From an uncultured Gemmatimonadales bacterium (GTDB lineage: Bacteria; Gemmatimonadota; Gemmatimonadetes; Gemmatimonadales; GWC2-71-9), in NCBI GenBank assembly GCA_963798915.1, contig CAWCVB010000010.1, positions 32,001-96,000 of the forward strand: 64,000 bases of DNA, read 5' to 3'. A program made the translations under genes and the position numbers. The notes under the pieces are model-generated. The model saw nothing but the letters and a program-made list of their open reading frames with translations. It made no database searches and was not told the DNA's origin. Below are positions 13,506 to 43,825 of the stretch, piece by piece (the stretch's first letter is position 1; every line of letters begins with the position of its first letter).

Positions 13506-14435
13506 TTATTCCTCTCGCGCCACCAGCGCCAGCGCCAGCCGCCCCACAATGCCGAGGCTTTGCGCGCTGATCTTGTCCATGGTATCGCGCGGGGTATGCC
13601 AGTAGGGATAATCAAAGTCCACCACGTCAATGGCGCGGATGCCGGCCTGCTGCAACTCGACGTGATCGTCGGTGAGCGTTACGTTCTCATAAGGCACGAA
13701 CACCGCGCCATACCCGAGCTTGTGCGCCGTGTCCCAGACGAGGTCCACGACCTCGCCCGCTCCGATCATCGAGTTGCCCTCCTGCGAAATGCGCAGGTCC
13801 TTGTCGCCCACCATGTCGAACAGCACCGCGTACAGTGGCTTGGGACCGAGCTGGTGCTGGCCGTAGTAGCGGCTGCCAATGAGCACGTCGCCCCGTTCGG
13901 TGAAGAAGTCGCCGTAGTCTTCGCCATCCGCAAAGAGCAGGTCGACGCCAACACCGGGAGCGGCGGCCTTGAGCGCATCGGCCACGCCCAGCAGCACGGC
14001 CACGCCGGAGGCGCCGTCATTGGCGCCGGGCACCGGCTGGGCGCTGTCACCCGGTTGCGCATGGGTGCCATCCGAATAGGGACGCGTATCCCAATGCGCC
14101 ATGAACAGGAGCCGCTTGGTGGCGCCGGGATTGAAGCGGGCCACGAAGTTGGTCAGCGCCAGCGAGTCCCCACGCACATCCACATGAGTCCAGCGCTGGT
14201 CAACGACGGTGTCGGCGCGGGCCCGCAGGAGGCTGTCGAGCCAGCGCGCTTCAGCGGCGTGACCTGGCCTGCCCGGAATGCGCGGCCCGAAGGCGACCTG
14301 CGCGGCCGCGTACTGGAGCGCAGCATCCGCGTCGAAGGCGCGCGGCTCGGCCAGCGGCTCCTCGCCGCAGGCCGCCACACTGGCGAGAGCGAGCACGAAC
14401 AGCAAGGCGACGCGGCACGTTCGCGGAACGATCAT
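13506..14435 (-). CDS. M28 family lipoprotein, probable glutaminyl-peptide cyclotransferase
   Basis: Lipobox VAAC; FGPR.PG..GH, AHWDTRP, GANDGASGV, DGEDYG, FDMVG, DDH and WHT..D motifs of M28 / animal-type QC enzymes. Confidence 0.85.
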   Translation of the reverse strand: MIVPRTCRVALLFVLALASVAACGEEPLAEPRAFDADAALQYAAAQVAFGPRIPGRPGHAAEARWLDSLLRARADTVVDQRWTHVDVRGDSLALTNFVARFNPGATKRLLFMAHWDTRPYSDGTHAQPGDSAQPVPGANDGASGVAVLLGVADALKAAAPGVGVDLLFADGEDYGDFFTERGDVLIGSRYYGQHQLGPKPLYAVLFDMVGDKDLRISQEGNSMIGAGEVVDLVWDTAHKLGYGAVFVPYENVTLTDDHVELQQAGIRAIDVVDFDYPYWHTPRDTMDKISAQSLGIVGRLALALVAREE

Positions 14436-17400
14436 CGCAGGTCCCCGGCAAAAAGACTGAGCCGGAAGCTGACGGTCATGTAGAGCGTCGATATCCGGCG
14501 ATTGAGGTGCTCGGCTTCGTTCACAAGATAGCCGAAGTCCAGCGCGCCCTCGAGCAGGTTGGCGAGGTCGGTCCGGAACGTGGCGCTGAATTCCTGGGTG
14601 CGCGTGTCACTGACCGGCACGCACTCGATCTGGCTCTGGGCCTGCAGGCAGGTTGTGCTGTGATCGGTCCGCGCGGTGACGGTGGAACTGATCCGCTTGC
14701 GTGAGCTGCTGATGCTCTGTGGCAGACGGAAGTTGTAGGACAGGGTCGTCAGCAGGTTGTTCTGGTCGAGCAGTGTCGAGGAGCCATTTCGATCGTTGCG
14801 CTGGCTCAGATCCGACATGGTGGCGGTCAGGGCCATGCCATTCCGGAAACCAACCTGCAGGTCAGGCGATAGCGTACTGGACCGGATGGCGCTGCTCGCC
14901 GCGATCACGTCAGACGAGGGTTGGGAACTGATGCCGCTGCGCTTACGGAACGTGGCACCCATGGCCATCAGCGTCACCGGGCCGCTGCTGAAGGTCTGTG
15001 ACCAGCGCAGCGAACCGGACGGCCATTCAGTCTGATTGGAGATGAGCGGCTGCAACTTACCGTTGATCCGCTGATAGCGGGTGGCGTCGGTCTGGCCGTA
15101 GCTCAGCGAGAGCGAGAGGCCAAAGGGCAGGTCGGCGCTGCTCGTCAGCGTCCGGATCCTCACGTCGCTGGCCCCGATCGCCTGCTTGCCGTACTGTGTG
15201 AGAAAATCGTTCAGCCCACCCAGCGCGAACTGGTAGGTCAGGCTGGGGTCAAACGCAGCAAGGTCAAAGCTCGAGGACAGCATATGCCGGGAACTGACGT
15301 CGACCGGTCGAATGTGGGAAAGCCCACGGCTCACGGCGCTCGAGTCGCCGGCCAGCAGCCGGACGAGGCGCGACAGGTCGAAGAGGCGCCCAGCTCGTCG
15401 CTGCGGCTGTTGTTCAGCGTTTTGGGAAGCACGAACATGCCCACGCTGTCGCCGCCCACCTGGATGGGCGGCCGGCTGGTGAGGTAGCGCGAAAGCGTAA
15501 AGCCACCCCGATGCACCAGCCGGGGACGGAACCAGCTCGACACCACCGGTGTCAGCGTCATCGACGTGCTGAGCTGCCGGTCCCGCTCCACGCCGGCATC
15601 GATGCCCAGAAAGCTTCGCCGCGAGAGCGACGCCAGCCGACCAATTTCGGTGGAGTCGGAATAGTGCCGCAGGTCCCGCGTGCTGCTGAGGTCACCGCTC
15701 AGGGTGAGCATCCCCAGCGGCTGCCAGCTCACGCCGGCATTGTTGCGCCAGACCTGGTTCAGTGACCCGGTCGGGTGGACCGCCGTATCCTGTGCAGTGA
15801 AGATTGGAACCTGGTACGCCGTCAGCGTGTTCGCGTCGCGCGCCAGACCGGACGAGAGCCGGATGCTGGTAGGTGCCAGGCCGAATCGTGCCTTGGCCAG
15901 CGCCTTGCCCATCTCGCTCTTGCGCAGAAAGCCGGGCAGCAGCCCCTCGAAGGTCGACGGTTGGCCCGCTGCGCCCAAGCGGCAGGTTGTAGGTCACGGC
16001 AAAATTGTTGTTGCTGCTCTGCGCGCGGCTCAGCTCGGTCAGCGCCAGGCCGCGGGCGAAGGCGGCCCGTCACTGACACCGGATCGATCAGGCCCTGGGT
16101 CAGCCAGTCCTTGCCCCGCACCGAGCGTCGGAGCGAAAAACTGTATGCGGTCGACCACGACCGCGGTCGGCGAAGGCCCTCGAGCGAGCCGCCGCGAATA
16201 TCGGTGCCGCTGATCAGCTGGGGATCGACGGCCTGCCGGGACAACGAGATGCTCACCGGAATGGCGATGCCCAATGACGCCGGCAGGAAACGATCCAGCC
16301 GCATGCTGCTCGACAGCCGCACCGTGTTGGTAGTGCGGAAACTCGGCGACTGTCCGATCTGGCGGAACTGGCCATCCTGGCCAATCAGCGAAACCGAAAT
16401 ATCGCCCACGTCGGATGCGGAAAGCCGCGCGTCCAGTGCATAGGCCTTGCCAAGTTGCGAAACCGGGTCCGTGACCCTGATATCATCGATCCAGACCTCG
16501 GCCTCAGGAAGGGGGCCATGATCCGCTACCCGGTACACGCCGGCCGACAACTCCTGGATCGCGGCAAGGTTGGGCGGGTTGATGCCGGGACTGCCGACCT
16601 GCACCATGTACCCACCGTCGCAGGCAACGTACGCGTTTGGGTCGCCGCCGCACTCGGCCGAGCCCGAGGGTGCTTCGCCGCGGAGCCAGCGCGCCTCGAT
16701 CTCGGCTCGCAGCGTCCGCCAAACCTCGAGATCGATGATCATCTCCGGCTCCCAGGAGGTCGTGCTGGCCGGCGCGCGGTACAGATAGAAGTTCCGGTCG
16801 TCACTCCCGAGCTTGATGAATGCCTCCAGGTCCCCGCGTTCCCACCCCGGACCATGTCCCCTGGCCCAGACGCGAAGTTGGCTGTAATTGAGCAGGCTCT
16901 GCGGCCCCGCACCAAAGCGAAGATACGTTTCGGCGCGCTCGTTCACCTCCAGGTCGGTGGCGAGGATGCGCAGCGACTTCTCGTTGATCTGCTGGGTCAG
17001 CTGGCCGGAGCCGGCATTTTTGTCATTGAGCGAGTTGATGGCGCCGGGCGGTGGCGTGTAGCCAAGTTCGACGTTTTCGGTGGAGACGGTCGCGGCCGCC
17101 ACCGAGCCATGCGGCTGGCCGGTTGAACCGCTCAGTCCGGCGATCGGAGTCTCGGCGCGCCGATTCCACGGGGCCCCCACAAACCGCATGCGCGCCAGCC
17201 CGAGCCGCCCAACGATATCGGGCCCGCCGTCGTCCGGCGGCGCGACGAAGGTAAGGCGCAGTTGCTGGATGAGCCGGATATTGGGCGAGCCGAGCTGTGC
17301 CGCGTTGGAGCCTCGCAGCGGGATCCGGTACAGTGTCCAGCCGGCCAGTCCCGCGCCATCGAAACTCTTCTGGCCCCGGCCCTTGACGATGTACGTGCTG

Positions 17401-20400: not shown

Positions 20401-20492
20401 GGCAGCGTGGAGTCAGGGACCTGCGCCAGCGCCACCCCTGGGAGGGTGAGCGCCATGAAACCCACGATAGAAGCAAGCCGGGAACAGGCCAC
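14432..20492 (-). CDS. sprA: SprA/Sov-like type IX secretion outer-membrane translocon (~2000 aa; split by several frameshifts)
   Basis: Consecutive fragments 20295-20492, 18881-20476, 18211-18942, 15822-18278, 15331-15978 and 14432-15334. Signal peptide; G.IG....VNVDY, Y.G..DEI...VE.G.V.F, QKG, GSE.I......L.RGVDY.IDY..G.V.F, LDTEDLNG, NEKSL and W.DDIR motifs; beta-strand-rich C-terminus. Confidence 0.85.
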
Positions 20493-20535
20493 GCGAACTC
20501 GGAATCGGGACCGGGTATAAAGGAAGGTCGGGCAG

Positions 20536-20564
20536 AATATAATGTTACGTCGAAACCCTTACAA
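20536..20564 (-). promoter_or_regulatory. Sigma70-like promoter for sprA in the AT-rich sprA/lptF divergent gap
   Basis: Minus strand TTGTAA-N17-TATATT; overlapping plus-strand TATAAT at 20538-20543. Confidence 0.5.
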
Positions 20565-20580
20565 CCACGTTACTTAGACC

Positions 20581-22059
20581 GTGCGACGCCTGACTCGCTA
20601 CGTGCTGGGCCGGCTGGTGGCGCCGTTCGGATTTGCGCTGGCAGCACTGACCGGCTTCATGCTCCTCAACCAGGTGGCCCGGCAGTTTTCCAAACTGGCC
20701 GGCAAGGGCCTCGACTGGAAAGTGATCGCCGAGGTGTTCGTGCTGGCGTTGCCGTTCATCCTGGCGCTTACGCTGCCCATGGCAGTGCTCGTGGCGACGC
20801 TCTACGGCTTCAGCCAGCTGGCGGCGGAGAACGAAATCACGGCGATGCGCAGCAGCGGGGTGAGCGTCGGCCAGATGCTCGGTCCGGTGCTGCTGGTCTC
20901 AGTGCTGGTTGGCGTGGCAACGTTCGGCTTCGTCGACCAGGTGCTGCCCCGAAGCAATGCCCGGCTACGCACGCTCTTTTTCGATATCGCGCGCAAGAAG
21001 CCGACGTTTGAACTGCACGAGCAGGTCCTCAATTCCATCCCCTCCTCGCAATACTTCCTGCGCGCCGCCAAGATCGACCAGGCAGAGGGGCAGCTCCGCA
21101 ACGTGACCATCTTCGACATGGGTGGCCAATGGAGTCGCCGTGTCATCTACGCTGACAGCGGCTCCATGGCCGTCGCCGGGCCAGCCGGCGCCGACCTGCT
21201 GCTGACCCTGCACGATGGCGTCGTGCACGAGTTTCCGGCCGCGGCGCCGGCCGACTTCCGCCTGGTCCGGTTTCACGAAAATCAGGTGGTACTGCGCGGC
21301 GTGTATGACCAGTTCCAGCGCAATGAAGGCACGATCGCCCGCGGCGATCGCGAACAGAGCACTTGCGAGATGCTTGGCGTGGTTCGCGCGGCCGATCGAG
21401 ACGAGCGCCAGGCCGAGCGCGACCGGGATGCCCTGCTCGACCGCGACCTGCGCTTCCTGCTCGGCGTGCCAGCCAGGCCAGCCCCGGCGCCGGTCGAGCA
21501 GGCGCCGGCCCGGGGCTACTGCAACTGGGCCAGCCGGATCCGGGACCTCATCCTCCCAGAGACGGCCAAGGCGCAGCAGGCTGCACAGCTGCCGGCAAGC
21601 AAGGTACGGAGCGCGCCACCGAGCCGCCTTTCGGGTCGGGGTGAGGTCACCGGCACGGCCAGCCGCATTGAGTCGGCAGAGCGCCAGAGTGATCGGTTTC
21701 TCGTCGAAGTCCACAAGAAATGGGCGATCGCCTTTGCCTGTCTTCCCTTTGCCCTGGTCGGCATCGTCGTCGCGCTGCGCTTTCCTCGCGGCGGCATGGG
21801 CCTCGTGATCGGCGGTGCAATGGGCGTGTTCGCGATCTTCTGGGTCGGGCTCACCGCGGGCGAGGCCCTGGCGGACAAGGGCATCCTGTCGCCCTGGCTG
21901 AGCATGTGGGCCCCGGACCTGGTGCTCTCGGTGCTGGGACTCATCGGCCTGGTCGTCGTGAGCCGGGAGATGGGCTCCACTCGAGGCGGCGACTGGCAGG
22001 AAATGGCCGACTGGTGGGGCGACCGCTGGCGGCGTGCGTGGCGCCGGGTGCGGCCATGA
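20581..22059 (+). CDS. lptF: LPS export permease LptF
   Basis: L.RY N-terminus, LPMA.L...L, NEI.AMRSSG.S, E.HKK.A and W.PD motifs. Confidence 0.9.
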   Translation: MRRLTRYVLGRLVAPFGFALAALTGFMLLNQVARQFSKLAGKGLDWKVIAEVFVLALPFILALTLPMAVLVATLYGFSQLAAENEITAMRSSGVSVGQMLGPVLLVSVLVGVATFGFVDQVLPRSNARLRTLFFDIARKKPTFELHEQVLNSIPSSQYFLRAAKIDQAEGQLRNVTIFDMGGQWSRRVIYADSGSMAVAGPAGADLLLTLHDGVVHEFPAAAPADFRLVRFHENQVVLRGVYDQFQRNEGTIARGDREQSTCEMLGVVRAADRDERQAERDRDALLDRDLRFLLGVPARPAPAPVEQAPARGYCNWASRIRDLILPETAKAQQAAQLPASKVRSAPPSRLSGRGEVTGTASRIESAERQSDRFLVEVHKKWAIAFACLPFALVGIVVALRFPRGGMGLVIGGAMGVFAIFWVGLTAGEALADKGILSPWLSMWAPDLVLSVLGLIGLVVVSREMGSTRGGDWQEMADWWGDRWRRAWRRVRP

Positions 22060-23135
22060 TACGCCTGCTTGATCGGTACCTGCTCGGTTCGTGGATCAAG
22101 CTGTTCATTGTAACCGCCATCGGCTTTCCGATCGTGGCCGTGGTCACCGAAATGATTCAGGAACTCCATGACCTGCTGGGCCGAGGGCTGACGCTGCGCC
22201 AGGTTGCGGTCAGCTACGTGTTCGGGATTCCCGCCTGGGCGTCGCTGGTGATGCCGGCCGCTGTCCTGTTCGCCACCATTTTCACGGTGGGCAACATGGC
22301 GCGCCATTCCGAGCTCACCGCGGCCAAGGCAGGCGGCGCGAGCTTCCATCGCCTGGTCCGACCGCTGTTCCTCGCCTCGCTGGCAGCATCGGGCCTCGCA
22401 ATCCTGGTGGGCGAACTGGCCGTGACAGCCTCTGCCCGGCAGGCGGATATGCAGAAGGCATCTGCCCTGGTCAATTCCGGCTCACGCTTCAACTTCGTCT
22501 ACCGCGCCAACCTCGGCTGGATCTACACCATCCGCGCGCTGGATGTCGCCTCGCATACACTGCGTGAGCTGGTGCTGGAGCGGGCCGGTACCGGTGATGA
22601 TTACCCGACGCTGGTCATTCGTGCCGACAGCGCCACCTGGGCGGATTCGTCGGCCCAGTGGACGCTCTGGAACGGCCAGAGCCGGGTACTGGGAGACGCC
22701 GGCCGCCTGGCCACGTTCGGCTTTGCCACCATGCAACTGGCGGCCTTCTCGCAGGATCCGTCCGAACTTCTGCTCAAGGACAAGGCGCCCCAGGCGATGC
22801 GCTACGCCGAACTCGGCCGATACATCGAATCGATGCATCGCGCCGGCAACCCGACCGGCGAGCTCGAGGTCCAGCGTGCCCAGCGCATCGCGATCCCGAT
22901 GGCCTGCCTGGTCATCGCGCTCTTTGGCGCCCCGCTGGCGATGGCCGCTCCGCGCTCCGGCACCGCCTTCGGCATCGGCGTGAGTCTCGCGGCCACGGTC
23001 GTCTACATCCTGCTCTCCCAGATTGCCACAGCAATGGGCGACAGCAACTTCCTGAGCCCCACCCTGCTGGCCTGGCTGCCCAACGCGCTGTTCCTGATCG
23101 CGGCGCTGGTGTTGCTGGACCGGGTGAGGTCGTAG
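22056..23135 (+). CDS. lptG: LPS export permease LptG
   Basis: MIRLLDRY start (ATGA overlap with lptF), SELTA.KAGG.S and AWLPN.LF. Confidence 0.9.
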   Translation: MIRLLDRYLLGSWIKLFIVTAIGFPIVAVVTEMIQELHDLLGRGLTLRQVAVSYVFGIPAWASLVMPAAVLFATIFTVGNMARHSELTAAKAGGASFHRLVRPLFLASLAASGLAILVGELAVTASARQADMQKASALVNSGSRFNFVYRANLGWIYTIRALDVASHTLRELVLERAGTGDDYPTLVIRADSATWADSSAQWTLWNGQSRVLGDAGRLATFGFATMQLAAFSQDPSELLLKDKAPQAMRYAELGRYIESMHRAGNPTGELEVQRAQRIAIPMACLVIALFGAPLAMAAPRSGTAFGIGVSLAATVVYILLSQIATAMGDSNFLSPTLLAWLPNALFLIAALVLLDRVRS

Positions 23136-23257: not shown

Positions 23258-26200
23258 TCAGAACGAATACTTCGCGCCGAACTGCATGCGCCAGCGTGAG
23301 GAATTCGGACCGAGGATGGTCCGCTCAATGGTGGCCGGCGGCGAGAAGTTGTAGATCGGCCGGTTGTTGACCACATCGTAACCGACGGCGCGGAGGAAGG
23401 ACGGGCCTTCCTCGAACCCGCTCACCTGCTTGAAGGCGCCCCACTCGTTGTCAATCATGTTCAGGACGTTGAACACGTCCCACGAGAGCAGCAGGCTCTG
23501 CCCGGCCGGAAGCGGCAGGGTGGTCGCCAGACGGGCGTTCAGCAGGTTGGACCACGGGTTCCGGCAGGAGTTGCGCTCCAGGATCTTCCCGCGGCTGTCG
23601 GCCAGGCACGGCTGGCTGTTGATGAAGTCATCCAGCGCACTGAACTGCGTCGGGTCGGCCAGCGTGATGTCCGAGGCGCTCGCCGGAACGTACGGCAGGT
23701 CGTTGCCGCTGATGCCGTCGGCATTGACGTCGCTGCCCACCGTCCAGCCATAGGGCGAGCCGGAGAAGCCCTGGTAGATCAGGGAGAACTGGCCCCGATA
23801 CGGCAGGTTGGCGGTGCCGCTGATGGTAATTTTGTGCGGCACGTCAAAGGCCGAAGTCGTTACGTTCCGGTCGAACAGCGACCCGTCCAGCGACGCAAAC
23901 TGGTAGTTCGAGAACGCGATGCTGCTCGTCAGGGAGATAGATGTCCTTGGTCTTCGAATAGGTGTAGCCGGCATTGAAGGCCAGCCCGTTATTGAAGCTC
24001 TTGGACAACTGCGCCGTGATCGAGACACTGTTGCCACCGTTGGCGTTGCGGTGAAACAGGGCGTTGCCAATGTCGGACCGGACAACGTTCTTGCTCGCCC
24101 GGCCGTCGGCCGGGTTAAAAGTGCCATACAGGTAGCGGCCCTCACCCGAGGTCGTCGGGGATTCCACCAGGTTGTTGTCCTGGATGTAGAGACTGTTCCG
24201 GTTGGTGGTGTAGAGGAAGTCCACCGTCCCGATGATGCCGTGCGGGAGCTGGTGATCAAGACCCAGTGCCGCCCGGAAGTTCTGCGGGAACTTGAAGTTC
24301 GGGTCAAAATACACCGGGTTGGCCCGCGGCAGCGATGGCGTTCCGCCGCCCACGCACGCGGTCGGCTGGTCAGCCAGGGCCGTGCCCGGGAAGGTCGGCA
24401 CCTCGGCGCCGGTGCAATTCAGCGTGACGCTTTCGAGGCCGGTGCCGACATAGGCATTGGACAGCCACACGTATGCCGGACGCCCGGTGAAGATGCCGGC
24501 GCCGCCGCGGAGCACGGTGGTACCGCGCCCGTCCACGTCCAAATTGAAGCCCAGCCGCGGCGACCAGAGCGCGTTGCCGCTGGGGAAGTCGCCGGTATTG
24601 ATCGGGAGGTTTGGGTCGCTCACCAGGTTCGGGTTGGTGATCGGGGCATTGAAATACGGCACGTCCACGCGGACGCCCGCCGTCACCGTTGCCCGGTTGC
24701 TCAGCGTCCACTGGTCCTGGACGAAGCCGCCAATCTGCTTCACCGAGAAGTCGGCCACCGGGCCGTTCGGCGCCAGCGAAGGATCGCCCGGCAGTGAGCG
24801 CTCGTACACTTCGGCCATACCCTGCTGCAGGCTGTCCAGCGAGGCGAACATCCAGTTTCCGTAGGAGCCCTGGGCAAAGACGTTGTGGAAGGTGAAGAAC
24901 TCGTCGCTGGTACCGACCGTGAGCCGATGCTGGCTGGCCACGTTCCAGCTCAGGTTGTCGGCCACCGAGTAGATGTCCTGATTCAGCAGGTTGCCCTGCG
25001 AGAACCGGTCGGCACCGGCCGCAAGCCAGGAATCACTGGAGCCGACCACGCCGGCATCGAGCAGGATGAGCGGGGCGTCATTGGCGATTTCGCGATGATC
25101 GCGAACCCACTGGCCGCCTCCCAGGAACTCGTTGGACATGTTCTGGCCAAACGTGGTGGTCCACTTGAGCCGGGTGGTATTGGTCCGGTTGGCCTGGCCA
25201 TAGCCGCTGTTGGAAAGCTGATAGCCATCACGCAGCCGGGAGGAGAAGCGCGGGCTGGTGGGGTTTCGAATCAGCTGGTCCTGGGTGGCATCCACCCAGT
25301 TGTGCGACAACTCCAGCCGGCTGTTGGGCGCGATCTGCCAGCTGAGCTTGCCGAACAGATTCTTGTCCGGATTCTTGATCGGCGGCGCCGTACCGTTGCC
25401 CGGATCACCGAGGTTGTACGTGTTGACCAGGACGTCCCGGAAGTCCTGCGCGTCGGCCAGGGTGAAGCCGACGTTGGCGATGTCCTCGGCGTCGTTGCCG
25501 GTCAACTGGTTGCTGCTGGAGAACGAGCTGCTGCTGCTCTGCAGGTCGGCCGAGACGAAGAACTGCAGCTTGTCCCGCATGATGGGACCGCTGAAGGTGC
25601 CGCCGTACTGGTACACGTTGAAGGAGCTGAAGGTCGGATCGTCCCGCTGGCCGGCCAGGCTCTTGCCCCGGTAGTAGCCAAACAGCGAGCCGTGGTAGTC
25701 GTTGGTGCCTGACTTCGTGACGGCGTTGATCAGCCCGCCAGTGAAGTTGCCCTGGCGCACGTCGAAGGGTGCCACCTGCACCTGGAATTCCTGGATCGCT
25801 TCGAGCGAGATCACGGTGGCGTTGGCCTGGCCGCCCGGAGTGCCGCTGGCAGCCAGCCCGAAGAGGTCGTTATTGACGCCGCCATCCACCTGGATGTTGT
25901 TGAACCGATTGTTCTGGCCAGCCACCGAGTTGCCATTGACCTGGGGAGCGGTCTGGATCAGGTCGGTGAAGTTACGGCCCTGCAATGGATAGCGCTGGAT
26001 GGCCGTGTCGGACACGACGGTAGAGGCGCCGGTCCGGGAGACGTCGGCGAGGATGGAGGTCTGGGTGACGACGTTGATATCCTCGAGCTGCACCGTGGTG
26101 CGCTTCAGGGTGACATCGTGCGAGACTCGCTGCCCCAGCGTAAGGTGGAGGCCTTCATCCCTGAGCGGCTGGAATCCGATGGCGCGTACCGACAGGGTGT

Positions 26201-26450
26201 ACGGGCCGCCCGCGGAGGCGTTGTCCACCACATACCGGCCATCAGACCGGGTGGTGACAACGTGGGTCTCGCCCGTGGCGGGCTTGATGAGCGACACATC
26301 CGCCCCGCCGACCGGCGCTCCATCCTCGGCCATCACGGTTCCGACGATTGCCGCTGAGGTGACGCCCTGCGCCTCAGCCCGGCTTACCAGCCCGGCCGTG
26401 AGCGCAAGCGCCAATACCGCCGCGCCTGCCCTACCTGACCATGATCTCAT
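23258..26450 (-). CDS. Oar-like TonB-dependent receptor with carboxypeptidase-regulatory N-domain (frameshift near 23935)
   Basis: Signal AEA-Q, P..GRNF, G.NNRFN...DG..NND.FG, GG.INAVTKSGTN, SPRLGF and C-terminal FGAKYSF. Confidence 0.92.
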
Positions 26451-26517
26451 ACCGACTCACCTCTCGGAAGTGGAAACTGTGGAAGCGCGCCCAAAGTTAC
26501 CGCCGCGCCGGAAGCGG

Positions 26518-27879: not shown

Positions 27880-28019
27880 TACCACCACGGGGAGTTTGAG
27901 GGGGGATTCAACTGGGAAAATCGACCGCAATCGTATGCTTGACAAGGGGGGAGCCGCTCCCGTTCTTTCGCTCGCCGCAGGGCCCCGCAGGTCCGCGCGC
28001 CCTCTCTGGAGATCTATTC

Positions 28020-30038
28020 ATGCACCAGTCGCAGCCCGATCCAGCCCGGTCACTCCGCCGCCTTGCCTGGGCAGGCGTCATCCTGGCGATCGGGCTGGTG
28101 GTCCTTGGCGGGGTGGTTCGAATCACCGGCTCCGGGCTGGGCTGCGGCAACCACTGGCCTCGGTGCGATGGCGCATGGTTCCCCCCGCTTGACCTGGCCA
28201 CGGCCATCGAGATCGGTCACCGCTGGGTGGCTGCCCTGCTGAGCGTGCTCGTCGTTGCCGTGGCAGTCCAGGCCTGGCGCCGCCATCGGGATGAACCCAG
28301 GCTCCGGCGTCCGGCATCGCTGGCGTTGCTGCTGCTGGTGGTCCAGGTCCTCCTGGGCGCGGTGACGGTCAAGCTCGACCTCCCGGCTTCGGTGGTCATC
28401 ATTCACCTGGCCAACGCCATGTTCCTGCTGGCCGCCCTGCTGGTCACCGCCATGCGGGCGGGCACCACGGCGATGCCGCTGCCCCGGCCGGACAGGCACC
28501 CTGACCACCGCCTCATCCTGGTGACCACCGCGGCCTCGCTGCTGGTGGTACTGCTTGGCGCCCATGTCGCCAACCTGAATGCCGGGTGGGTCTGCCTCGG
28601 TTTCCCGTTCTGCCGCGGATTCGGCCTGGGCCCGCCACCGACAGCGCTCGGCGCCCTGCACTGGACCCACCGGATCCTGGCCTACCTCTTCCTCGCGCTT
28701 GTGGCCGTGACCTCGATCCGGCTTTCGGCCCGGAGGGACGAGGACGCAGCGCCAGTCCGAACGGTGGCCAATGCCCTGCTCGGCCTTACCGTGCTGCAGG
28801 TCATCGTGGCCGCCACCATGGTGCTCGCAAGCCTGCCGACCGCGCTGCGGGCGGCGCACCTGATGCTCGGAACGCTGATCTGGACCTCCGGAGTGATGCT
28901 GGTGTTCCGATCCCGCCGTCTTGGCAGGGCAATCGCGGCCGTTCCGGCAGGGGATCTCGGGGCGTCAGCGAGCTTTGCCGACTTGGGTAGGGGTGGCCTG
29001 CGGTCCACCCCTACCGTTGTCGGGCGGGATTCAGAAACAGATGGAGTTATCCCGGATCACGCCGAATCGCTTGCCGTCCCGGCGGCGCCGTCGTTTGTCC
29101 AGGACTTGGTCACCCTCACGAAACCCCGAATCATTTCGCTGCTGCTGGTCACCACGGTCGCGCCCATGTTCATCACTCCGGCCGGGCTGCCTTCCATGCG
29201 GCTGGTCTTGCTGGTGGTCGTCGGCGGGTATCTGATGGCGGGCGGCGCCAACGCCATCAACATGTGGTTTGATCGTGACATCGACACCCGGATGGCACGC
29301 ACGCGCCTCAGGCCGATTCCCGCCGGGCGGGTCAGTCCCGGCGCTGCGCTCGTCTTTGGCGTCGGGCTGGGGGTCATCGCATTCTTCATCTTCTATCGCT
29401 TCGTGAATCCGCTGTCGGCGTGGCTTGCGCTGGGTGGTCTGCTTTTTTACGTGTTCATCTACACGATGTGGCTCAAGCGCACCACCACCCAGAACATTGT
29501 CATCGGCGGGGCGGCCGGCGCCTTCCCGCCGCTGGTTGGATGGGCAGCCATGACCGGCCGGCTCGATCTCGCGGCCATTTATCTCTTTGCCATCATCTTC
29601 TATTGGACCCCTCCCCACTTCTGGGCCCTCGCACTGATCAAGCAGCGTGACTATGCCAAGGCCGGGGTCCCGATGATGCCAGTGGTCCGGGGTGAGCGCC
29701 GCACCAAGGTGGAAATGCTGCTGTATACCCTGTTCCTGCTTCCCCTCACCCTGATGCCGTCACTGTTCGGGGCCCTGGGATTGGTCTATTTCGTTTCAGC
29801 TCTCCTGCTTGGCGCGAGACTCTTGTGGTACTGCGTGCAACTACTACGAGAATCCGGCGTAACACCAACGGCCTGGCGGATGTACAAGTATTCGCTGCTA
29901 TATCTCTTCCTCCTGTTCCTCGCGATGGGCGTCGACCGACTGGTGCCCATTCGCCGAGCGCTGCCACCTGCCCGACTTATGCTCGACAACGCTGACCCCC
30001 ACCCGGGGGCGGCCGGACTCCGTGAGCTGACGCACTGA
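28020..30038 (+). CDS. ctaB: Fused heme A synthase (CtaA/COX15) - protoheme IX farnesyltransferase (CtaB/CyoE)
   Basis: N-half: GLGC..WP.C, E..HR, H..HR. C-half: LTKPRI, N...DRDID..M.RT..RP, YT.WLKR, WTPPHFWAL. Single open frame. Confidence 0.93.
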   Translation: MHQSQPDPARSLRRLAWAGVILAIGLVVLGGVVRITGSGLGCGNHWPRCDGAWFPPLDLATAIEIGHRWVAALLSVLVVAVAVQAWRRHRDEPRLRRPASLALLLLVVQVLLGAVTVKLDLPASVVIIHLANAMFLLAALLVTAMRAGTTAMPLPRPDRHPDHRLILVTTAASLLVVLLGAHVANLNAGWVCLGFPFCRGFGLGPPPTALGALHWTHRILAYLFLALVAVTSIRLSARRDEDAAPVRTVANALLGLTVLQVIVAATMVLASLPTALRAAHLMLGTLIWTSGVMLVFRSRRLGRAIAAVPAGDLGASASFADLGRGGLRSTPTVVGRDSETDGVIPDHAESLAVPAAPSFVQDLVTLTKPRIISLLLVTTVAPMFITPAGLPSMRLVLLVVVGGYLMAGGANAINMWFDRDIDTRMARTRLRPIPAGRVSPGAALVFGVGLGVIAFFIFYRFVNPLSAWLALGGLLFYVFIYTMWLKRTTTQNIVIGGAAGAFPPLVGWAAMTGRLDLAAIYLFAIIFYWTPPHFWALALIKQRDYAKAGVPMMPVVRGERRTKVEMLLYTLFLLPLTLMPSLFGALGLVYFVSALLLGARLLWYCVQLLRESGVTPTAWRMYKYSLLYLFLLFLAMGVDRLVPIRRALPPARLMLDNADPHPGAAGLRELTH

Positions 30039-31903: not shown

Positions 31904-31919
31904 CTGGTGAACAGCCGGC

Positions 31920-33574
31920 TTACTGGCCGATCATCCGGAAGAGGTAGTGCGCAGCAGGCTTTGGCGATGCCGAGTAATTGAAGTAGACGATCGCCACGTA
32001 GTATGTGCCGGCAGTCAGCGCGACGTCCCCAGATTCGGCATTGGCCGTACCAGAGGCACCGCCGCCGCCCTTGGAGTCAACAGCACTGCTGAGTGCCGAG
32101 AAGCTGGCATCGTAGAAGTAGACCCCCAAGTCTGCACCGTCGCTGATGTACGGCAGCTGGAACTTGATGGTCTGGTTGGCTCCCAGAACCAGCTTGTACA
32201 ACCGGGCACCACCGCCAAAGTCGGCGCTCGCGTTGAAATCATATGGCGCGCCGTCCCAGAACGCCGTGGTGTCACCAACCGCCGGGTCGGTAATGCTCGG
32301 AGCGGTCGCAAAGGCGCCCGTTCCCGCCAGGAACGCCACTTCGTCGGCGGTGATCGTCTGGTTGCTCGGCAGGTCGCCCATCTTGAACAGCGATACCAGC
32401 CCGCTGTCGACGCTCATGTTGCCATCAACGCCAGGCTCAAAGAGGACCGAAGCGGAGTTGCTGTCCGCGGCGATGGTCCACGCGAGCGCCGGACGTCCAT
32501 CGACCGCAAACGTGGATTTAGGTGAGAAGCGGAACAAGGCACTTCCGCCCGTGACCGTGACGAACTGGCCCACCGCTGGCGTATTGTCGGAAACTGCGGC
32601 CTGGAACGTGTCCACCACCGCGCTCACGAGTGTGTCTTCCGACGTCAATGAGAACGTGAACGTCGGGTTGGCAGCATTGATGAGATTGGTGAAGGTGGTC
32701 GGCCCGACGCTGTTCGGCCCCGCCTCCAAGTCCATGCTTGTGCCATCCCCGGCAATAACGAACCGCGGCGTCGGCCCGGCCGAGTCAAATGAAACTTCGG
32801 TCGAGTCCGTGAAGATGACGCCGGCGGGCGCAGTGACCGTAATGTGCTCGCCCAAGGCCGGCGTGAGATTGCTGAAGGTGAAAGGCTGGGTTCCGGAAGG
32901 GCTGTTGAGCGTGTCGCTGGCAGTAACTCCGAAGACCACGTTCTTATTGTATGTCAACGTGACATTGGTGAACTTGGCCGGCCCAAGGAGATCGGGCCCG
33001 GCATTGAAGGTCAGCGTGGTGCCGTCGGGCGCGACGCTGACGGGCGTCAATGTGTCGCCACCGAAAATCACCAGGGTGGAATCGGTGAACAGCAGGTCGG
33101 ACGTCACCGATGCGGTCACGACCTCACCCAAGGCCGGTGTCAGAGTCGAGAATGGAAAACTCTCGGCACTGTTGGGGGTCACCACCACCGGCACGTCCAG
33201 CGTCAGATCACCGCTGGTGATGGAAAATGACGAGTTGTCGAGCTCGCTGGTGCTCACCCAGACCCGAAGTTCCGTCGTGTTCGGGTTGAACACCAGGGTA
33301 TCGCCGTGGTAGATCGGCCGGAACGCCGAGTCGGCACGAACGCTGATGCCGGGTCCCACGGTCGAGATCGAGATGGGCTGCAGGACTGACGTGCCCTGCT
33401 GATCCACGACCCGGATGCGAACATTCTGGCTGTCCGTTCTCGAGACGAACACGACGGCGGGTTCGGCCACGATGTGGTCAGCCGATCCGGGACTGACCTG
33501 ATCGGGCTCGGTGCTGCATGCCCCGAGCGACACGTCACGGCGAGTAGAACAGCACCACGCAAGATACGATTCAT
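31920..33574 (-). CDS. Lipoprotein with three internal beta-rich repeats and a C-terminal PPC-like domain (indel in the signal peptide)
   Basis: MNRILRGAVLLAV joins VSLGA-C after a 1-nt shift near 33535. Repeats TPALGEVVT / TPALGEHIT / TPAVGQFVT; D....Y and L.AGTYYV.I motifs. Confidence 0.7.
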
Positions 33575-33660
33575 GTCTGGCACCTCATTCCAATCGAAAT
33601 GTGGACACGCGCCCGGAGCCGCTTCGAGGCGAATGCTCACCCGCCGTGCCGGCAGGCGGG

Positions 33661-35159
33661 CTAGAAGGGGCTGTCGGAACCACCGGTAAAATCAATGCCC
33701 AGATAATGGCAGATATCCTGCACCGCCGCCTTACCCAGGATTTCCTTCCAGGCGGCAGCACCGTGCTCAGTGACAGTCGTTGGTGTAATCAACTGGTACG
33801 ACCCGAACCCGTTACGATCCGCAAAAATATAGTATCGCGGCTTGCCACGGGTGTATCGCCACACCTCATATGGCGGCGCGAAGCCAGTTGGCACCCGCGT
33901 GAGCTGGTCGGATGCCGCGCCATACTTGGCATAAATCCGGCCCCGGTCAGTCCGCCACCCCGGCTCCTGCCGGCCTCGTCCCAACCCGAAATGCCTGGTC
34001 CGCATAGGCAATGGCCTGGTAGAACCGCTCGCGCTCCTCATTCGCCGGCGTTTCCGGCTTGAGCGTCGAACTGCTTCCAGAAGGCCACCAGGAAGCGGCG
34101 CTTGGCACTCACCGACAATTTGTCGTAGCCGCGCAGCTCGTTCGACTTGGCAATCAGCAGCAGTGGCGCCTCCGCAGAATCCAGCTGCGCCTCGTCCATC
34201 GCCGCGAAGTATGCCTCGTCTCCCGCGGTCGCTACGCTGCCGGCGCTCATGCCGCCCCGAGCGCTGTCCTGCGCCAGTGTCTCCTGCATGCTGGCCATGC
34301 TGAACGGTGCCCGCCGCTCAATCCGCTGCCCATTGAGATCCAGCGTGACCACAAACTGATATCGGTCCTGGCGGAAGTCCATCAAGATCCAGCTGCCCCT
34401 GCAGCGTCCCGCCTCCTGCCGGCACCGGGACCGCCGATGGTGCTGTTCGGAAGAATGACTTTCCCCGACGAATCCACCACCGAAACCTGCATCGCGCCCG
34501 AGGTTTCGTCCGGTCTGTCCCGTGTAGGTTTCCAGCAGGTAGAACGCCTTGGTGCGCATCGGTGTCAGTCTGAAGCTCCACGGCTGGCACCAGGATGGTA
34601 TTTCCTCGCCGGATTTCGCCCGGCTGGGGCACGGTGTCGCCGTCGCCGGCCGTGCGCATGGCAGGCGACAACAGCAGGTCGCTCGCCGTCGGGCGGCGAA
34701 CTGTAGCCCAATGACCGCTGACATCCGTCTGCGCCTCCGTCCCGACACGCTGTCAGTCACGGTAACGTGCATGGTGTAGCGGCCCGCGACCACTGGAAAC
34801 TCCATCAATTCCAAGTCCGGTGGCGCCAGGCATCTTGCGCTTCGGTCGGGAACCCGCTTGCTCCAAGTCCACGGCTCCGCCAGGAGCGCAAGGCCGGTCG
34901 AGTCTGTCACCTGGGCACTCACGCTGTAGACCATGCTGCCCGTCGCCGGAACCACTTGCTGGTGCCTGCAGGAGCGAGTATGGCACACTCACGAAGACCT
35001 TGACCAGCGTCTGCGCATGCATCGGGCCGATAGTACCGGACGACCCGCATGCTCCAGCGAATCCTGGGCGCGAACTTCAGACGCGGGCCAGAGCGAAAGA
35101 AGCGCCGCCAGTGCCACCACTGAATGCAACATGCAACTGCCTCGGAATGAGTAGTTCAT
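33661..35159 (-). CDS. GWxTD domain-containing exported protein (multiple frameshifts)
   Basis: Signal VRA-Q; KRRFL..FWKQ.D; GWRTDRGRIY.KYG; E.WRY and YIF.D..G.G.Y.L across fragments. Confidence 0.85.
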
Positions 35160-35268: not shown

Positions 35269-35304
35269 GATGTGGCGGACGCGGGACGGCCGCCCGCCAC
35301 ATCC
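35269..35304. terminator. Stem-loop downstream of the porV-like gene
   Basis: GATGTGGCGG...CCGCCACATC inverted repeat just past the stop; no U-tract. Confidence 0.4.
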
Positions 35305-35310
35305 CGGGTG

Positions 35311-36426
35311 TTACCAGCCGAGGCTGAAGGTGAAGAAGTTCGTTCCACCCAGGACGCCCATGTAGCGGAAGGCGTAATCCAGCCCAAGACTGAAGGTGCC
35401 GGTGTCGTAATTCAGTCCGCCACCGAGGGCCAGACCCTGCAGGCGCTCTTCATCATTGAGCGCCGTCTGGTTCACGGCGAGGTCCACATTGTTGGCCGGC
35501 GCGTAGCTGTAGCTGCCGCGCAGCGCAAATCCGAACGGGCTGCCACCGAGCCGATTGGTGGCGAACTCGCTGCCGAACGAGAAGCCCGCCTTGTTGCTGG
35601 TGACCTGGTTGAAATCACCCAGCAGCGAAAGGCGGCTGGTCTCCGCTGAAATCAGGTCGTAGGACAGGCCCACCCGGAAGGTGGTCGGGAGCGGGAAATC
35701 CTTGCTCCGGAACTGGCCCGGCTGATCGATGCTGGGGACCGGCTGCTCACCCTGGAGGGGCTCCCGTGGGATGTCCGCATTCAGGCCCGTGCCGCTGTAG
35801 CGCAGGTTGGTGCCGAGATTGGACAGGACGAAGGAGAACACTACCGGATGGTTGTTCAGCGAGGCATGGAAATTGGTGCCGAAGTCCACGGCGAACGCCG
35901 TACCGTGCGCGTCGCCGAGGTTGTCGGAAATCACCTTGCCCGTGATGCCGGCGGAGAAGCGGTCGGAGAAGTTCGACGCCAGCGTCATGCCGGCGAAGGT
36001 TTCCGTGACCGAGTACCGTGCGCCGGTGCCGTCTGGCTGATCCACGGTGTAGACCGGCTGGTCGCTGAAGCCGAAGGTGCCGAGCTGCACGCCGAACGAG
36101 CTGGTGCCGCCGTTAAATGGCAGCGCGAAGCCACCCCAGCTGTAGCGGGTGTCCGCCACATAGTTGTAGGTGCTGACCATGACACCCGGCCGGCTCATCA
36201 GCGCGGCGCCGCCCGGGTTGTAGTAGAGGGAACTCACATCGGTTGCGAGCGCAGTGAATGCGCCGCCGAGCGCGACGCCCCGGGCCCCGGCCCCAAGCAG
36301 CAGGAATTCTGCCGAGGTGGTCCCGTAGCCCGTATTGTCCGCGGCTGCCTGTGCTGCCAGTCCCGCCGGCAGCCCAGTCAGAAGCGCCGCGACCAGGGCG
36401 AAGCGTTGGGTGTTGAACTGACTCAT
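35311..36426 (-). CDS. porV: PorV/PorQ family outer-membrane beta-barrel (T9SS shuttle homologue)
   Basis: Signal LAA-Q; hallmark AEFL..G.GARG.ALG.AF.A.A.D.S..YYNP.G; A.D.G, LP..FR.G and LDYA motifs; terminal aromatic FSLGW. Confidence 0.9.
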   Translation of the reverse strand: MSQFNTQRFALVAALLTGLPAGLAAQAAADNTGYGTTSAEFLLLGAGARGVALGGAFTALATDVSSLYYNPGGAALMSRPGVMVSTYNYVADTRYSWGGFALPFNGGTSSFGVQLGTFGFSDQPVYTVDQPDGTGARYSVTETFAGMTLASNFSDRFSAGITGKVISDNLGDAHGTAFAVDFGTNFHASLNNHPVVFSFVLSNLGTNLRYSGTGLNADIPREPLQGEQPVPSIDQPGQFRSKDFPLPTTFRVGLSYDLISAETSRLSLLGDFNQVTSNKAGFSFGSEFATNRLGGSPFGFALRGSYSYAPANNVDLAVNQTALNDEERLQGLALGGGLNYDTGTFSLGLDYAFRYMGVLGGTNFFTFSLGW

Positions 36427-36486
36427 AAGCTTCCATTCTCCTGGATGCGGGGAAGGACGGGCGAGCCGCCCTCCCCCTGCTGTGGG

Positions 36487-40377: not shown

Positions 40378-40460
40378 CGTGCATCCTCTCCGATGAGAAT
40401 AGCGTAGGCCCCGGAGCCGGGAGCGCACCTGCGCGCCCACCGGCCCGGCACCCGTTGACC

Positions 40461-43400
40461 TCAGAAATTGATCTCGACTCCCAGCCGCGCCCGACGGCCG
40501 GTGCCCAGGAAGGCGTTCTCGCCCAACCCGGTCAGGTAGCGCGCCTTCGGCAATCTTGCGCTGCTCGTCCAGCGAGAACAGGTGGTCGCCATTGCCCCAG
40601 CGCTCTTCCACGCGCCGCAGGTAGATGCAGCTCGGCACGCCGCCTTCGATCTGCGGTGGTGACGTAATTGGCACATCCAGCCACGCCCTGGCCACCAAAT
40701 TGAGGTCGATGTCGCCGGTAGCGTCGTTGTAGATCGCGTTGGCCGTAGCTTCGTCCTGCCAGTTACCCAGGGTGGACTGGATCGACCGCTCCTCATTCAG
40801 GTTGTCCACGATGTCATTGGTGTTGATGAACACGCGGAGGACATTCTTGAAATTGAACAGATTGTCAACCTGCAGGTAGGTCGTCAGGTCCATGCCACCC
40901 AGGCCAAAGCCCTTGGTGAGCTTGATGTCGAACTGCTTGAAGGCCGGCAGCCGTGCGGCGTTATAGCCGCCCACGAACTGGCTCTGGATGCCGCAGGCCT
41001 GACCCGAGAGCACGCCCAGATTATCGCTGGCCGGCGTGCACTTGGTATACGCGGTGCCACTGGCGTAGCGGAAGACGCTGAACAGCCCGACGTTCTGGAG
41101 GACCGTGCCCAGCGCCGTTCCATCATGCCAGTCGCCCGGGAAGTTCACGCTGAAGGCACCCGCCAGGCTGTGTGGCCGGCTCTCGTTCGTCGGCGCGATC
41201 GCCTGCGGCGGCGGCTGGTTGCCGCCCGACAGCGAATTGATGATGCGCGAGCCGAAATTGATATAGGTCAGCGGGTCCGACCCGGTGTTCTTGGCTGAGG
41301 CGTAGCTGTACGACACCGTGCCGTTGAAGATCTGGCCGATCCGACGGTCCAGCCGGACGTCCACGCCGCGCGTGTTGCCAAAGTCCTCATTGGTCAGCAC
41401 CCGCAGGTTGTTCGGGCGAGTTGTTGCGGGTCGGGTTGCGACGGCTGACAAGGCGGCCCGCGACGTCGGCCAGCTTGTCCTTGTTGTAGGCCGCCACGTC
41501 CAGCACCATGTCGTCGCTGAAGGCATGCCGGATGCCGAACTCGAAGAGCACCGTCTTGGCGAAATCGAGGTCGGTGCCGAACACGTTGTTCGTATTGCTG
41601 AGCGTCAGGTCGCTGAAGATGCTCGTCAGCATGGCGCCGAAGTCCGGCGTCTGCACCTGGTGTGCATAGGACAGGCGGAAATTGGTCTTCTCCGTCACCG
41701 GGAAGGCCACCTGCACGTGCGGGCTCAGGTACGAGTGACGCTGGTCGGGCAGGAAGGCCACCAGCGGCAGGTCCTGGCCATTGACGTTGAACGTCTGGCC
41801 CTCGGCCCCGTAGCTCGAGAGGGCCGGATACTGCTGATACTGCCCGAAGGTCGGATTGGCCGCGCCCAGTCCCGGAAAGCGTCTGGATCGTGTCCAGCGA
41901 ATAGGGCCGTTCTGCGCGCGTGTTGTATACGTCGTAGCGCAAGCCGCCGACCACGACGACGTCGCCCAGGTCGAGCCGGTCTTCCACGAAGGCGTTCCAG
42001 TAGATGGGCTTCTCGATGTAGGCATCGGAGAAGATCTGAGTCGTCAAGCTGTGGCCGTAGAGCGCTGTGTTGTACCAGGTATGCTCGCCGCCCAGCTTGA
42101 GCCGGTTGTAGCGGTCAAACTGCCAGTCAACATTGGCCAGGGCCCGGAGGCGGTTCTCCCGGTACATCCGGAGCGTGCCGGTGGGTCCACCGGTCTCGCT
42201 GCTGCCCAGCGTGCCGTAGCCGCTGTTGCGGTAGGTGTTGACCGTATTGTACTGGTCCACGCGCGGCCAGGTCATACGGCGACCGTCGGCTGCCCTGCCG
42301 GTTGAACTTGTAGTTGTTGATGAGCTCCGAGTCCAGCGGGAACGACTTGAAGTCAAACATGAATCCGAGCGGCTGCACCAGGAACCCACCGAAGTTGTCC
42401 TGCGGTGGCCAGCGCGCTCTCGGGGGTGAGCGGTCCCTGCAATCCCCGATCCTGCTGATAGGAAAGGCTGGCATCGAGAGCCAGGGCGCGTTCAGCCGAC
42501 TTGGACAGGTTCTGGGTCCAGTTCATCTGGTAGACCCGGCTCCAGTTACGAAGCCCAAACAGATTGGACGGGTTGGAGTTGAGCGTGATCCCGTTCCGGC
42601 TCTGGCTCTGGCTACCAATGAACAACAGCGCGATGCGCGAGCCCACGCCGAAGCTGTAGTTCAGCTTGCCCTGCACGCCGTAATTGGACGACACATTACG
42701 GGAATTGCGGGCCCCGTTGCAGGACACACCGTAATTGTCGGCAATGTCAGGGTTGGTGCTGCCGGCAAACTGCTCGCACGTGCCCTGGTCCACCGCCAGG
42801 TTATACACATCCACGTACGACGTGTCGGACGTCTGGCTGCCCGGCGAAAGCGGCACCGCCACGGTGGTGTCAATGCCGGCGTACCGGAAGTTCGGATACA
42901 GTTGGGCATTCCGCCCGCCGAAGCCGTACCGGTTGCCTTCCAGGGTGCCTGACAGGTAGAACGTCAGGTCGCCCATCAGCGGGCCGCCGAGGGCGGCATT
43001 GATGCGGTTGAATCCGGTGCTGCTGGTGTTGGCGAACGGTTCGTCCGTCTCCCAGCCCAGGTGGCCACTAAACGAGGAGCCGCCGGTCTTGGTGACGATG
43101 TTCAGGATGCCGGACTGTGCGTTGCCATACTGCGACGAGCTGGCGCCAGTGGTGATCGATGCTTCTTCAAAGTCTCCCTTGCCGAAGTCAATCGAGTTGC
43201 CACTGACGTTCGAATTGGTGACCGTGCCACGGTTGCCTGGCGAGACCGGTACGCCATCGATATAGGTGGCCGCCTCGTCTGGCCGGCCGCCGCGAATGCT
43301 CAGCGTATTGCCACTGGCGCTCGCCACCACGCCCGGCTGCAACGCCAGGGCCTGGTTGATGCGATCCACCGGCAACGCCGCCGTGAAGTCGCCGCTGATC

Positions 43401-43825
43401 CGCTGCTTGGTCGTGACTTCGTCACGGGGCACCAGCGGCTGCGTGGTGGCGACGGTGATGTCGGGCAGTTCAACTGTCGTGGCCGGGAGGCTGAAGTCCT
43501 GCGTCAGCGTCTGGCCGGACAGGACACGCACGCCCTCCGTGCGCATGGCCCGGTAGCCGATGAACGCGGCACGCATGGCGTAGGTGCCGGAGGGCACGTT
43601 GTTAATGAAGTAATACCCCTGCGGGTTGGTGAGCGCGGAGAACGCAGTGCCGACGATCGTCACGGACGCGTTAGCGATGGGCGCGCCCGCCTCATCGTTA
43701 ACCCGGCCCTCGACCTTGCCAGTTGCCTGGGCCTGGAGCGCTGATGCGCCCACCACCAGAGCAACTGCGGCAAATGCGAACGTACGCGCTGCGCGAGCGA
43801 AGGCCCTGACACAGCTTTGCTTCAT
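40461..43825 (-). CDS. TonB-dependent receptor with carboxypeptidase-regulatory N-domain (multiple frameshifts)
   Basis: Signal LQA-Q, G.Y.I.NVP.GTY, L.LQPGV, IRGGR..E...YIDG, YGNAQSG..N..TK.G, SP...AFPV and C-terminal RLGVEINF. Confidence 0.9.

Follow-up and report, generated by a model that had tools for sequence, protein, structure and literature searches.

Does a Gemmatimonadales bacterium carry the outer-membrane core of a type IX secretion system (T9SS), and if so, is that core accompanied by the motor, ring and attachment complex of such a system? The question was raised by a 64-kb stretch of DNA, referred to as the window, from the genome of a soil Gemmatimonadales bacterium (genome G000, contig C10, positions 32001-96000). 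An earlier note on this DNA had proposed a T9SS-like system of SprA, PorV and a cargo with a C-terminal sorting domain (CTD) in a Gemmatimonadota-like, non-Bacteroidota host. Both proposals were upheld. All three elements were found where they had been predicted, and the five closest SprA loci in a species-representative collection all came from Gemmatimonadales metagenome-assembled genomes (68-79% identity). The locus is best read, with a probability of roughly 0.65, as a Gemmatimonadales form of the T9SS outer-membrane core that lacks both the motor and ring spanning the envelope and the sortase-type attachment complex. This reading is based on the homology of each of the three parts, on how widely they are conserved and occur together in the phylum, on the operon order, and on the fact that GldK, GldL, GldM and GldN were not found.

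Identification of the translocon, barrel and cargo

Five minus-strand open reading frame (ORF) pieces of the window matched the SprA/Sov model TIGR04189 in alternating frames, covering model positions 97-1726 of 2319. A single piece reached 214 bits (cut-off 200). The window's genome comprises 3.31 Mb in 17 contigs at approximately 65% G+C, with a completeness of 84.8% and a contamination of 0.82%. A 100% complete genome of the same genus (G115) was used as the intact reference. Its contig C38 is collinear with window positions 7800-47500, with every gene of the collinear stretch in a single frame, and G122, an outgroup to the window's genome and G115, has the same gene order as G115. The intact G115 SprA (open frame of 2380 residues, stop-to-stop) scored 449 bits on TIGR04189 and matched Flavobacterium johnsoniae SprA (PDB 6H3I_A) at E 1.6e-18. 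By the score over the cut-off and the 6H3I_A match, the gene was assigned to the SprA/Sov translocon of the T9SS. When G115 SprA was searched against the window by tblastn, the segments obtained were 20516-20322, 20419-19079, 19086-18238, 18302-16029, 15978-15382 and 15391-14435, in good accord with the SprA/Sov-like gene proposed earlier at 14432-20492.

The other two parts lie 15 kb from sprA in a five-gene minus-strand operon, which encodes a TonB-dependent-transporter-like barrel, the CTD protein, a PorV/PorQ-family barrel, a GWxTD protein and a PPC protein. The corresponding G115 genes measure 1160, 1307, 395, 574 and 594 residues stop-to-stop. The PorV/PorQ-family barrel scored 140 bits on the family model NF033709 (cut-off 90), 45.8 on the PorV-specific model (cut-off 250) and 63.7 on the PorQ-specific model (cut-off 220), and is the sole strong copy in the genome. 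Its G115 orthologue matched PorV (PDB 6H3I_F) at E 6.8e-4. The PorV assignment of the earlier note therefore holds at family level. The transporter heading the operon, whose start at 43825 forms the upper end of the span noted earlier, passed the cut-offs for CarboxypepD_reg and Plug; its barrel region had no match to a Pfam barrel model.

The last 70 residues of the CTD protein passed TIGR04183 (type A sorting domain), with 24.1 bits as a protein and 28.5 bits in the genome scan (cut-off 23). A protein of approximately 1300 residues ending in a T9SS CTD (36487-40377), as predicted earlier, was thus recovered narrowly; with type A or type B CTDs as the mark of a T9SS cargo, this protein qualifies as a borderline case. 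TIGR04183, PF18962 and a lineage CTD hidden Markov model made from 26 orthologues each returned one ORF in the genome, that adjoining the PorV-family gene. The type B model TIGR04131 had zero matches in the genome.

The cargo belongs to a family of 1,637 relatives at E<=1e-3, with lengths of approximately 1,290-1,350 residues. The best 120 relatives are 52-70% identical over 95-100% of the length, and several relatives carry the NCBI name 'T9SS type A sorting domain-containing protein [Gemmatimonadales bacterium]'. In an Atlas look-up, taken as a lead only, the cargo was nearest to unnamed Gemmatimonadota and Ignavibacteriota clusters, and the nearest named cluster was Fidelibacterota, with Por_Secre_tail in 61% of members. 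The family profile had zero matches to PDB sequences. A 1,200-residue cargo model was poor (predicted local distance difference test, pLDDT, 61.7), and Foldseek found nothing at E<=0.001. The C-terminal 436 residues before the tag (G115 cargo, L028:9308-10615, minus strand) were modeled confidently (pLDDT 85.5, predicted template modeling score 0.88); for this model Foldseek again found nothing at E<=0.001, and the best Z from VIA-align over 48,161 chains was 4.4, below the meaningful level. Some relatives have a duplicated cargo gene, of which one copy is interrupted by stops or frame changes (G023:C5 and C9; G107:C5 and C2). G045 has an intact sprA and a single cargo copy (G045:C2), which is split into five pieces.

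Conservation and co-occurrence across the phylum

Profile searches covered an evenly sampled set of 151 Gemmatimonadota genomes, 145 of which are at least 90% complete. The tallies count the unpublished genome G057 (for SprA, GldL, the PorV family, GldK, cargo and GWxTD) and G097 (for GldK) as one each, and no conclusion depends on either. SprA (TIGR04189) was present in 121 of the 151 genomes, over the cut-off in 120, and missing from 30. The PorV family (NF033709) was matched in 133 genomes at E<=1e-5 and over the cut-off in 116. For co-occurrence, the SprA and PorV tables were compared side by side, and the ten SprA-negative genomes not listed individually were worked out by elimination, using the totals for each family. 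A PorV-family match was present in 120 of the 121 SprA-positive genomes. The 30 SprA-negative genomes comprised 17 without such a match, 10 with weak matches only (E 5e-6 to 4e-14) and 3 with strong ones.

At least 12 genomes of the window's family (f1) resemble the window in having sprA and the PorV-family gene on one strand, separated by 17-20 kb, and the order cargo, PorV, GWxTD recurs in at least 14 f1 genomes. Full-length cargo was found in 41 of the 71 f1 genomes; outside f1, a few genomes from three families have it. Elsewhere the match is confined to the last 100-190 residues, and these belong to other proteins of 1,000-1,440 residues encoded directly upstream of a PorV paralogue. Six such examples come from deep-branching families and one from family f2 (G099). 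Because the arrangement recurs in this way, a large tagged protein with a PorV-type barrel of its own encoded directly after it is a repeated module in the phylum.

Four genomes of genus g41 in f2 (G067, G136, G092 and G103) gave SprA scores of 818-1251 bits on the Bacteroidota-trained model, against approximately 400-570 (summed matches) in the other families of the phylum. This may reflect slower divergence or transfer.

Search for the motor and ring

In the window's genome, at the completeness given above, the GldK, GldL, GldM and GldN models had no match at E<=0.01. Across the 151 genomes, GldM (TIGR03517) and GldN (TIGR03523) were found in none. GldL (TIGR03513) reached its cut-off in none, with nine weak matches to the C-terminal part, and GldK (TIGR03525) likewise in none, with 92 genomes matching just positions ~219-406, the generic FGE-sulfatase fold. 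The GldK model had no match whatever in the window's genus. The Pfam model GldM_1st (PF12081) had no match in five genomes, four of them PorU-positive. Neither the PorL/GldL-PorM/GldM motor nor the PorK/GldK-PorN/GldN ring of a T9SS was therefore found, with Gld models run without a Bacteroidota positive control; of the 14 control genomes used with the profile searches, none has a motor-bearing T9SS. A Bacteroidota gldK record was sought by tblastn of the FGE-sulfatase domain against plasmids, and only generic FGE enzymes were returned. The GldK negative is firmer, because that model detects remote FGE domains yet finds none in the window's genus. The earlier note had seen no PorKLMN, PorU or PorZ in the 64 kb, and the same was found for the whole genome. 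It had also named a canonical PorKLMN set in the genome as a finding that would overturn the idea; such a set was looked for by models in the 84.8% complete genome and not found. Within the limits stated, the phylum as a whole appears from its gene content to lack the motor.

The negatives could also arise if a full T9SS were present with a motor and ring diverged beyond the TIGRFAM and Pfam models, which were trained on Bacteroidota. The GldL, GldM and GldN models lack a positive control, SprA, PorV and the CTD themselves score low on Bacteroidota models, and deep-branching families that have PorU and many cargos are also without Gld matches, which could mean that the models are insensitive. 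The GldK model, however, found distant FGE-sulfatase domains in 92 of the 151 genomes, none of full length and none in the window's genus. PorU scored 480-636 bits in the deep-branching families, so that not all T9SS parts have diverged beyond recognition, and no unassigned gene is conserved beside sprA or porV in the nine loci examined. A diverged motor is on balance unlikely.

An extra MotA/ExbB-type stator was considered as a substitute motor and rejected: the complete G115 genome has just two MotA/ExbB/TolQ-family genes. The window's genome had no MotA/ExbB/TolQ (PF01618) match, although between one and four were found in 19 of the 21 genomes searched (the window's included among the 21). 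The TonB and Tol stators of the window's organism probably lie in the missing 15% of its genome.

Attachment complex and probable reduction

PorU (NF033707) passed its cut-off in 18 genomes, all belonging to the three deep-branching families f10-f12 (19 genomes in total), and the nineteenth genome there has PorU split over two contigs. A PorZ-like ORF of 780-870 residues was found once in each of the 19 genomes, at 71-121 bits (44.7 in G026), below the cut-off. Outside f10-f12 no PorZ-like genes were found, bar tag-only C-terminal-domain matches in two f1 genomes (G037 and G065). The window's genome and class had no PorU or PorZ, and thus no attachment complex, beyond such tag-only matches; in this class the tag region matched by the PorU and PorZ models is that of the cargo itself. 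The 19 deep-branching genomes each have 4-14 PorV-family paralogues and, at a first look, tens of CTD candidates, and porU and porV are adjacent in these families (e.g. G012:C15).

With PorU, PorZ-like proteins, PorV paralogues and many CTDs in the deep-branching families, the one-cargo set of the window's class looks reduced from a richer state, and not ancestral, as far as gene content can indicate. The ancestral T9SS suggested in the earlier note was accordingly not supported.

Frame changes in the secretion genes

Frame changes were counted by aligning G115 proteins to the window (Table 1). The SprA, transporter, cargo, GWxTD and PPC genes together carry approximately 15 frame changes in 16.6 kb. 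For the background, orthologue pairs of at least 200 residues were aligned from 40 further G115 contigs, which gave 11 frame changes in 231.9 kb (185 pairs; 176 with none and no pair with more than two), or 0.047 per kb; a first background sample had given 3 frame changes in 100.9 kb (78 pairs). The rate in the secretion genes is thus approximately 20 times the genome background. Homopolymer density is no different and does not explain the excess. General assembly noise was rejected as the cause on these two grounds. A look-up of sequencing runs that contain the sprA stretch listed none. Each of the 9 other genus members encodes SprA in a single open frame, where the contig allows. One other frameshift cluster was found in the background sample of the window's genome (contig C5, ~10685-13800), with 3 frame changes in an adjacent accessory alpha-galactosidase and sodium:solute symporter.

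Table 1. Features of the window, with the model or observation on which each assignment is based and the number of frame changes relative to G115
Feature	Coordinates	Strand	Evidence	Frame changes
sprA/sov homologue (T9SS outer-membrane translocon)	14432..~20516	-	TIGR04189; six collinear frame segments	5 (first weakly supported; 4-5)
TonB-dependent-transporter-like barrel, first operon gene	40450..43825 (lower end approximate)	-	Pfam CarboxypepD_reg + Plug; N-terminus MKQSC...	4 (five collinear segments)
CTD protein (cargo), ~1,300 residues	36487..~40380	-	TIGR04183; four frame pieces	3
PorV/PorQ-family 14-strand-type barrel, intact	35311..36426	-	NF033709	0
GWxTD-domain protein	33664..35132	-	TIGR04514 at 74.7 bits on G115 orthologue	at least 2, plus out-of-frame stretches with two stops
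PPC-domain protein, last operon gene	31920..33685	-	Pfam PPC on G115 orthologue	1
M28-fold type II glutaminyl cyclase homologue	13506..14435	-	Pfam Peptidase_M28; start codon abuts sprA stop	0
comEA-like HHH protein, pilB, pilT, pilC	8418..13370	-	Pfam HHH_3, T2SSE twice, T2SSF	0 each
lptF, lptG, divergent from sprA	20581..23135	+	Pfam LptF_LptG	0 each
Second Oar-like transporter	23261..26456	-	CarboxypepD_reg + OMP_b-brl_4	1
ctaAB	27900..30038	+	COX15-CtaA + UbiA (CtaB)	0
Permease				0
PAS gene				0
M24 peptidase				1

The earlier note had treated the frameshifts as errors to be repaired. They are present as described, but calling them errors was premature, since they are enriched in exactly these genes and may be real decay. 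The excess means that this copy is either recently dead or a poorly resolved, strain-variable locus.

That the genes are real pseudogenes, with the system caught during its loss from this strain, has a little under an even chance, and is compatible with a motor-less T9SS core in the lineage. Functionally linked genes at two loci are broken together at a rate far above background with equal homopolymer density, and all 9 of the other genomes in the genus have an intact SprA. Loss has precedents of a kind in the 30 phylum genomes from which SprA is missing, in G023 and G107, which have cargo copies interrupted by internal stop codons, and in G045, whose copy is in five pieces; the other cluster, moreover, strikes an accessory gene pair. 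The in-frame segments of SprA, cargo and transporter, on the other hand, contain zero substitution-type stops, and G+C at third codon positions stays high in all pieces. When the window and G115 were each compared with the outgroup G122, there was no excess divergence for SprA (51.8% vs 51.3%) or the transporter (54.2% vs 53.5%); the cargo gave 48.7% vs 52.1%. Damage by indels only, at strain-variable loci, is what is expected of a long-read consensus of mixed strains. Between real decay and consensus error at strain-variable loci the balance is near even.

Genes beside sprA

Divergent pairing of sprA with lptF-lptG was seen at all loci examined, namely in f2, f7, f10 and f11 (by Pfam; L041-L044) and in G009 of f12 (by ORF pattern; L045), as well as in four genomes of the window's family (the window's, G115, G045 and G122). 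For a divergent gene pair, conservation to this depth is unusual. On the other side, sprA, the cyclase, comEA-like gene, pilB, pilT and pilC run head to tail with short or no gaps (window 8418-20516, minus strand), an order shared by the window, G115, G012 (f11) and G009 (f12, by ORF pattern) and partly by G067 (f2). At the f7 and f10 loci the pil and comEA genes do not lie beside sprA.

These neighbors suggest another role for SprA, in lipopolysaccharide (LPS) export with LptFG or in a competence pilus with ComEA and PilBTC, with the CTD operon being unrelated. The divergent lptF-lptG pairing, which extends to the four Pfam-tested loci of other families, and the pil order in f1, f11 and f12 and partly in f2 are what such a role would lead one to expect. 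It is nevertheless improbable: SprA and PorV-family genes co-occur, the homology of SprA is to a protein translocon, the pil genes are unbroken whereas frame changes affect sprA and the operon, and in two families the sprA locus lacks pil and comEA. For the last two reasons the pil, comEA and lpt neighbors are regarded as context and not as parts of the system.

The cyclase matched PDB glutamine cyclotransferases (6QRO at 4.9e-50; also 6QQL, 7CJE and 4FUU). The comparison is with the type II glutaminyl cyclase and 'Q-rule' of Bacteroidota (PMC5837995), whose enzymes the window cyclase matches at E 1e-47 to 1e-51. In five of six window envelope proteins, judged by eye, Gln follows the predicted signal-peptidase site (SprA, PorV-family barrel, both transporters and GWxTD, not the cargo). 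Gln is also the commonest +1 residue genome-wide, in 84 of 545 (15.4%) crude signal-peptide candidates, vs 3.2% after the same tripeptide elsewhere. Bochtler et al. 2018 describe the Q-rule as typical of Bacteroidetes rather than of the FCB (Fibrobacteres-Chlorobi-Bacteroidetes) group as a whole, and Gemmatimonadetes are absent from the main text (PMC5837995).

Genes unrelated to the system also lie within 14432-43825 (lptF, lptG, an Oar-like transporter, an amino-acid permease, ctaA-ctaB and an ATP-binding cassette exporter). The second Oar-like transporter is located between lptG and the permease. The ctaAB entry of Table 1 is a single 712-residue ORF, by its domains an apparent fusion of the haem A and haem O synthases.

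Proposed mechanism and comparison with known systems

In a motor-less T9SS core of this kind, the 1,300-residue cargo would cross the inner membrane by Sec. In the periplasm, SprA and the neighboring PorV-family barrel would recognize the Ig-like tag at the C-terminus of the cargo, after which the cargo would pass through the SprA barrel and exit bound to the PorV-family barrel. Since there is no PorU or PorZ, the tag is probably neither cut nor joined to LPS. The cargo would then stay on the cell surface in association with its PorV partner and might serve the TonB-dependent transporter whose gene lies upstream.

In Myxococcus xanthus, the secretion of PopC depends on Oar, a TonB-dependent transporter. 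The first gene of the operon shares with Oar the CarboxypepD_reg and Plug domains ahead of a putative barrel; the window transporter differs in being tied to the cargo by gene order alone.

The closest counterparts are the SprA-PorV translocon of F. johnsoniae (PDB 6H3I, 6H3J, 8GL6 and others) and Sov/PorV of Porphyromonas gingivalis, with which the window shares a giant barrel of the same family, a PorV/PorQ-family barrel and a type-A-like tag. The differences are a SprA of approximately 2,030 residues vs 2,403, a barrel below the PorV equivalog cut-off, one cargo vs tens, and, in the window's lineage, no GldK, GldL, GldM or GldN found and no PorU or PorZ. As in the P. gingivalis attachment complex (PorU-PorV and PorZ-PorQ), a PorV/PorQ-family barrel is encoded beside a large CTD protein. 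Unlike that complex, the window's CTD protein is not PorU or PorZ, just its last 60-70 residues matching those models, and it represents the conserved family of its own described above (1,637 relatives, no PDB sequence match).

Several observations weigh against the assignment to a motor-less T9SS core. The genes of the system are broken in this genome. The CTD scores are borderline (24-28 bits vs a cut-off of 23), the G115 orthologue scores 21.9, and Pfam PF18962 and CHU_C on the cargo are below their cut-offs. The barrel fits just the broad PorV/PorQ-family model. Full-length cargo in just 41 of 71 f1 genomes means that the cargo is not tied one-to-one to SprA, and GWxTD proteins are multi-copy and occur in SprA-negative genomes too. 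None of the genomes searched was known to bear gldKLMN, so that the GldL, GldM and GldN negatives lack a positive control and a divergent motor is possible, and the incomplete genome misses even the MotA/ExbB match common to 19 of 21 genomes. Finally, all studied T9SSs need a proton-driven motor according to the available sections of reviews, so that a motor-less version is without experimental precedent.

A wider reading is less likely than not. SprA, a PorV-type barrel and a tagged cargo might form a self-sufficient, motor-free export module, an older core kept by Gemmatimonadota, which in the window's class would be dedicated to one giant, highly conserved surface protein partnering a TonB-dependent transporter; the rotary motor would then be a later Bacteroidota addition. 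If this were true, the joint breakage of sprA and the distant operon would be natural evidence of one functional unit.

Earlier reports and significance

Abby et al. 2016 report the T9SS in Bacteroidetes only, in the sections available (PMC4793230), and reviews, at the points available, place it loosely in the FCB superphylum (PMC9127263, PMC11205867). A passage of Mizgalska et al. 2024 counts Gemmatimonadetes among several phyla in which T9SSs 'may also be present' (PMC11285876), and one of Bochtler et al. 2018 gives BLAST hints of a T9SS in Chlorobi, Fibrobacteres and Ignavibacteriae (PMC5837995). The available portion of Emrizal and Nor Muhammad 2020 does not mention Gemmatimonadetes (PMC7323717). 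The literature search found no paper analyzing which T9SS parts Gemmatimonadota have, and none mentioning GWxTD. What was already known is that the proteins are named by NCBI. What is new is that the absence of K, L, M and N has been quantified phylum-wide, that the system is reduced to a single cargo and lacks PorU and PorZ, and that it is selectively broken in this strain.

The clustered frameshifts are also a warning about automated repair, which can mask the genuine loss of such genes. The one-cargo form without a sortase would be a simple system for studying what SprA and PorV can do alone. A motor-less phylum would reveal a second way to drive SprA transport, or to do without driving it, or would expose unknown motor proteins, and as Gemmatimonadota include cultured strains, the question is testable.

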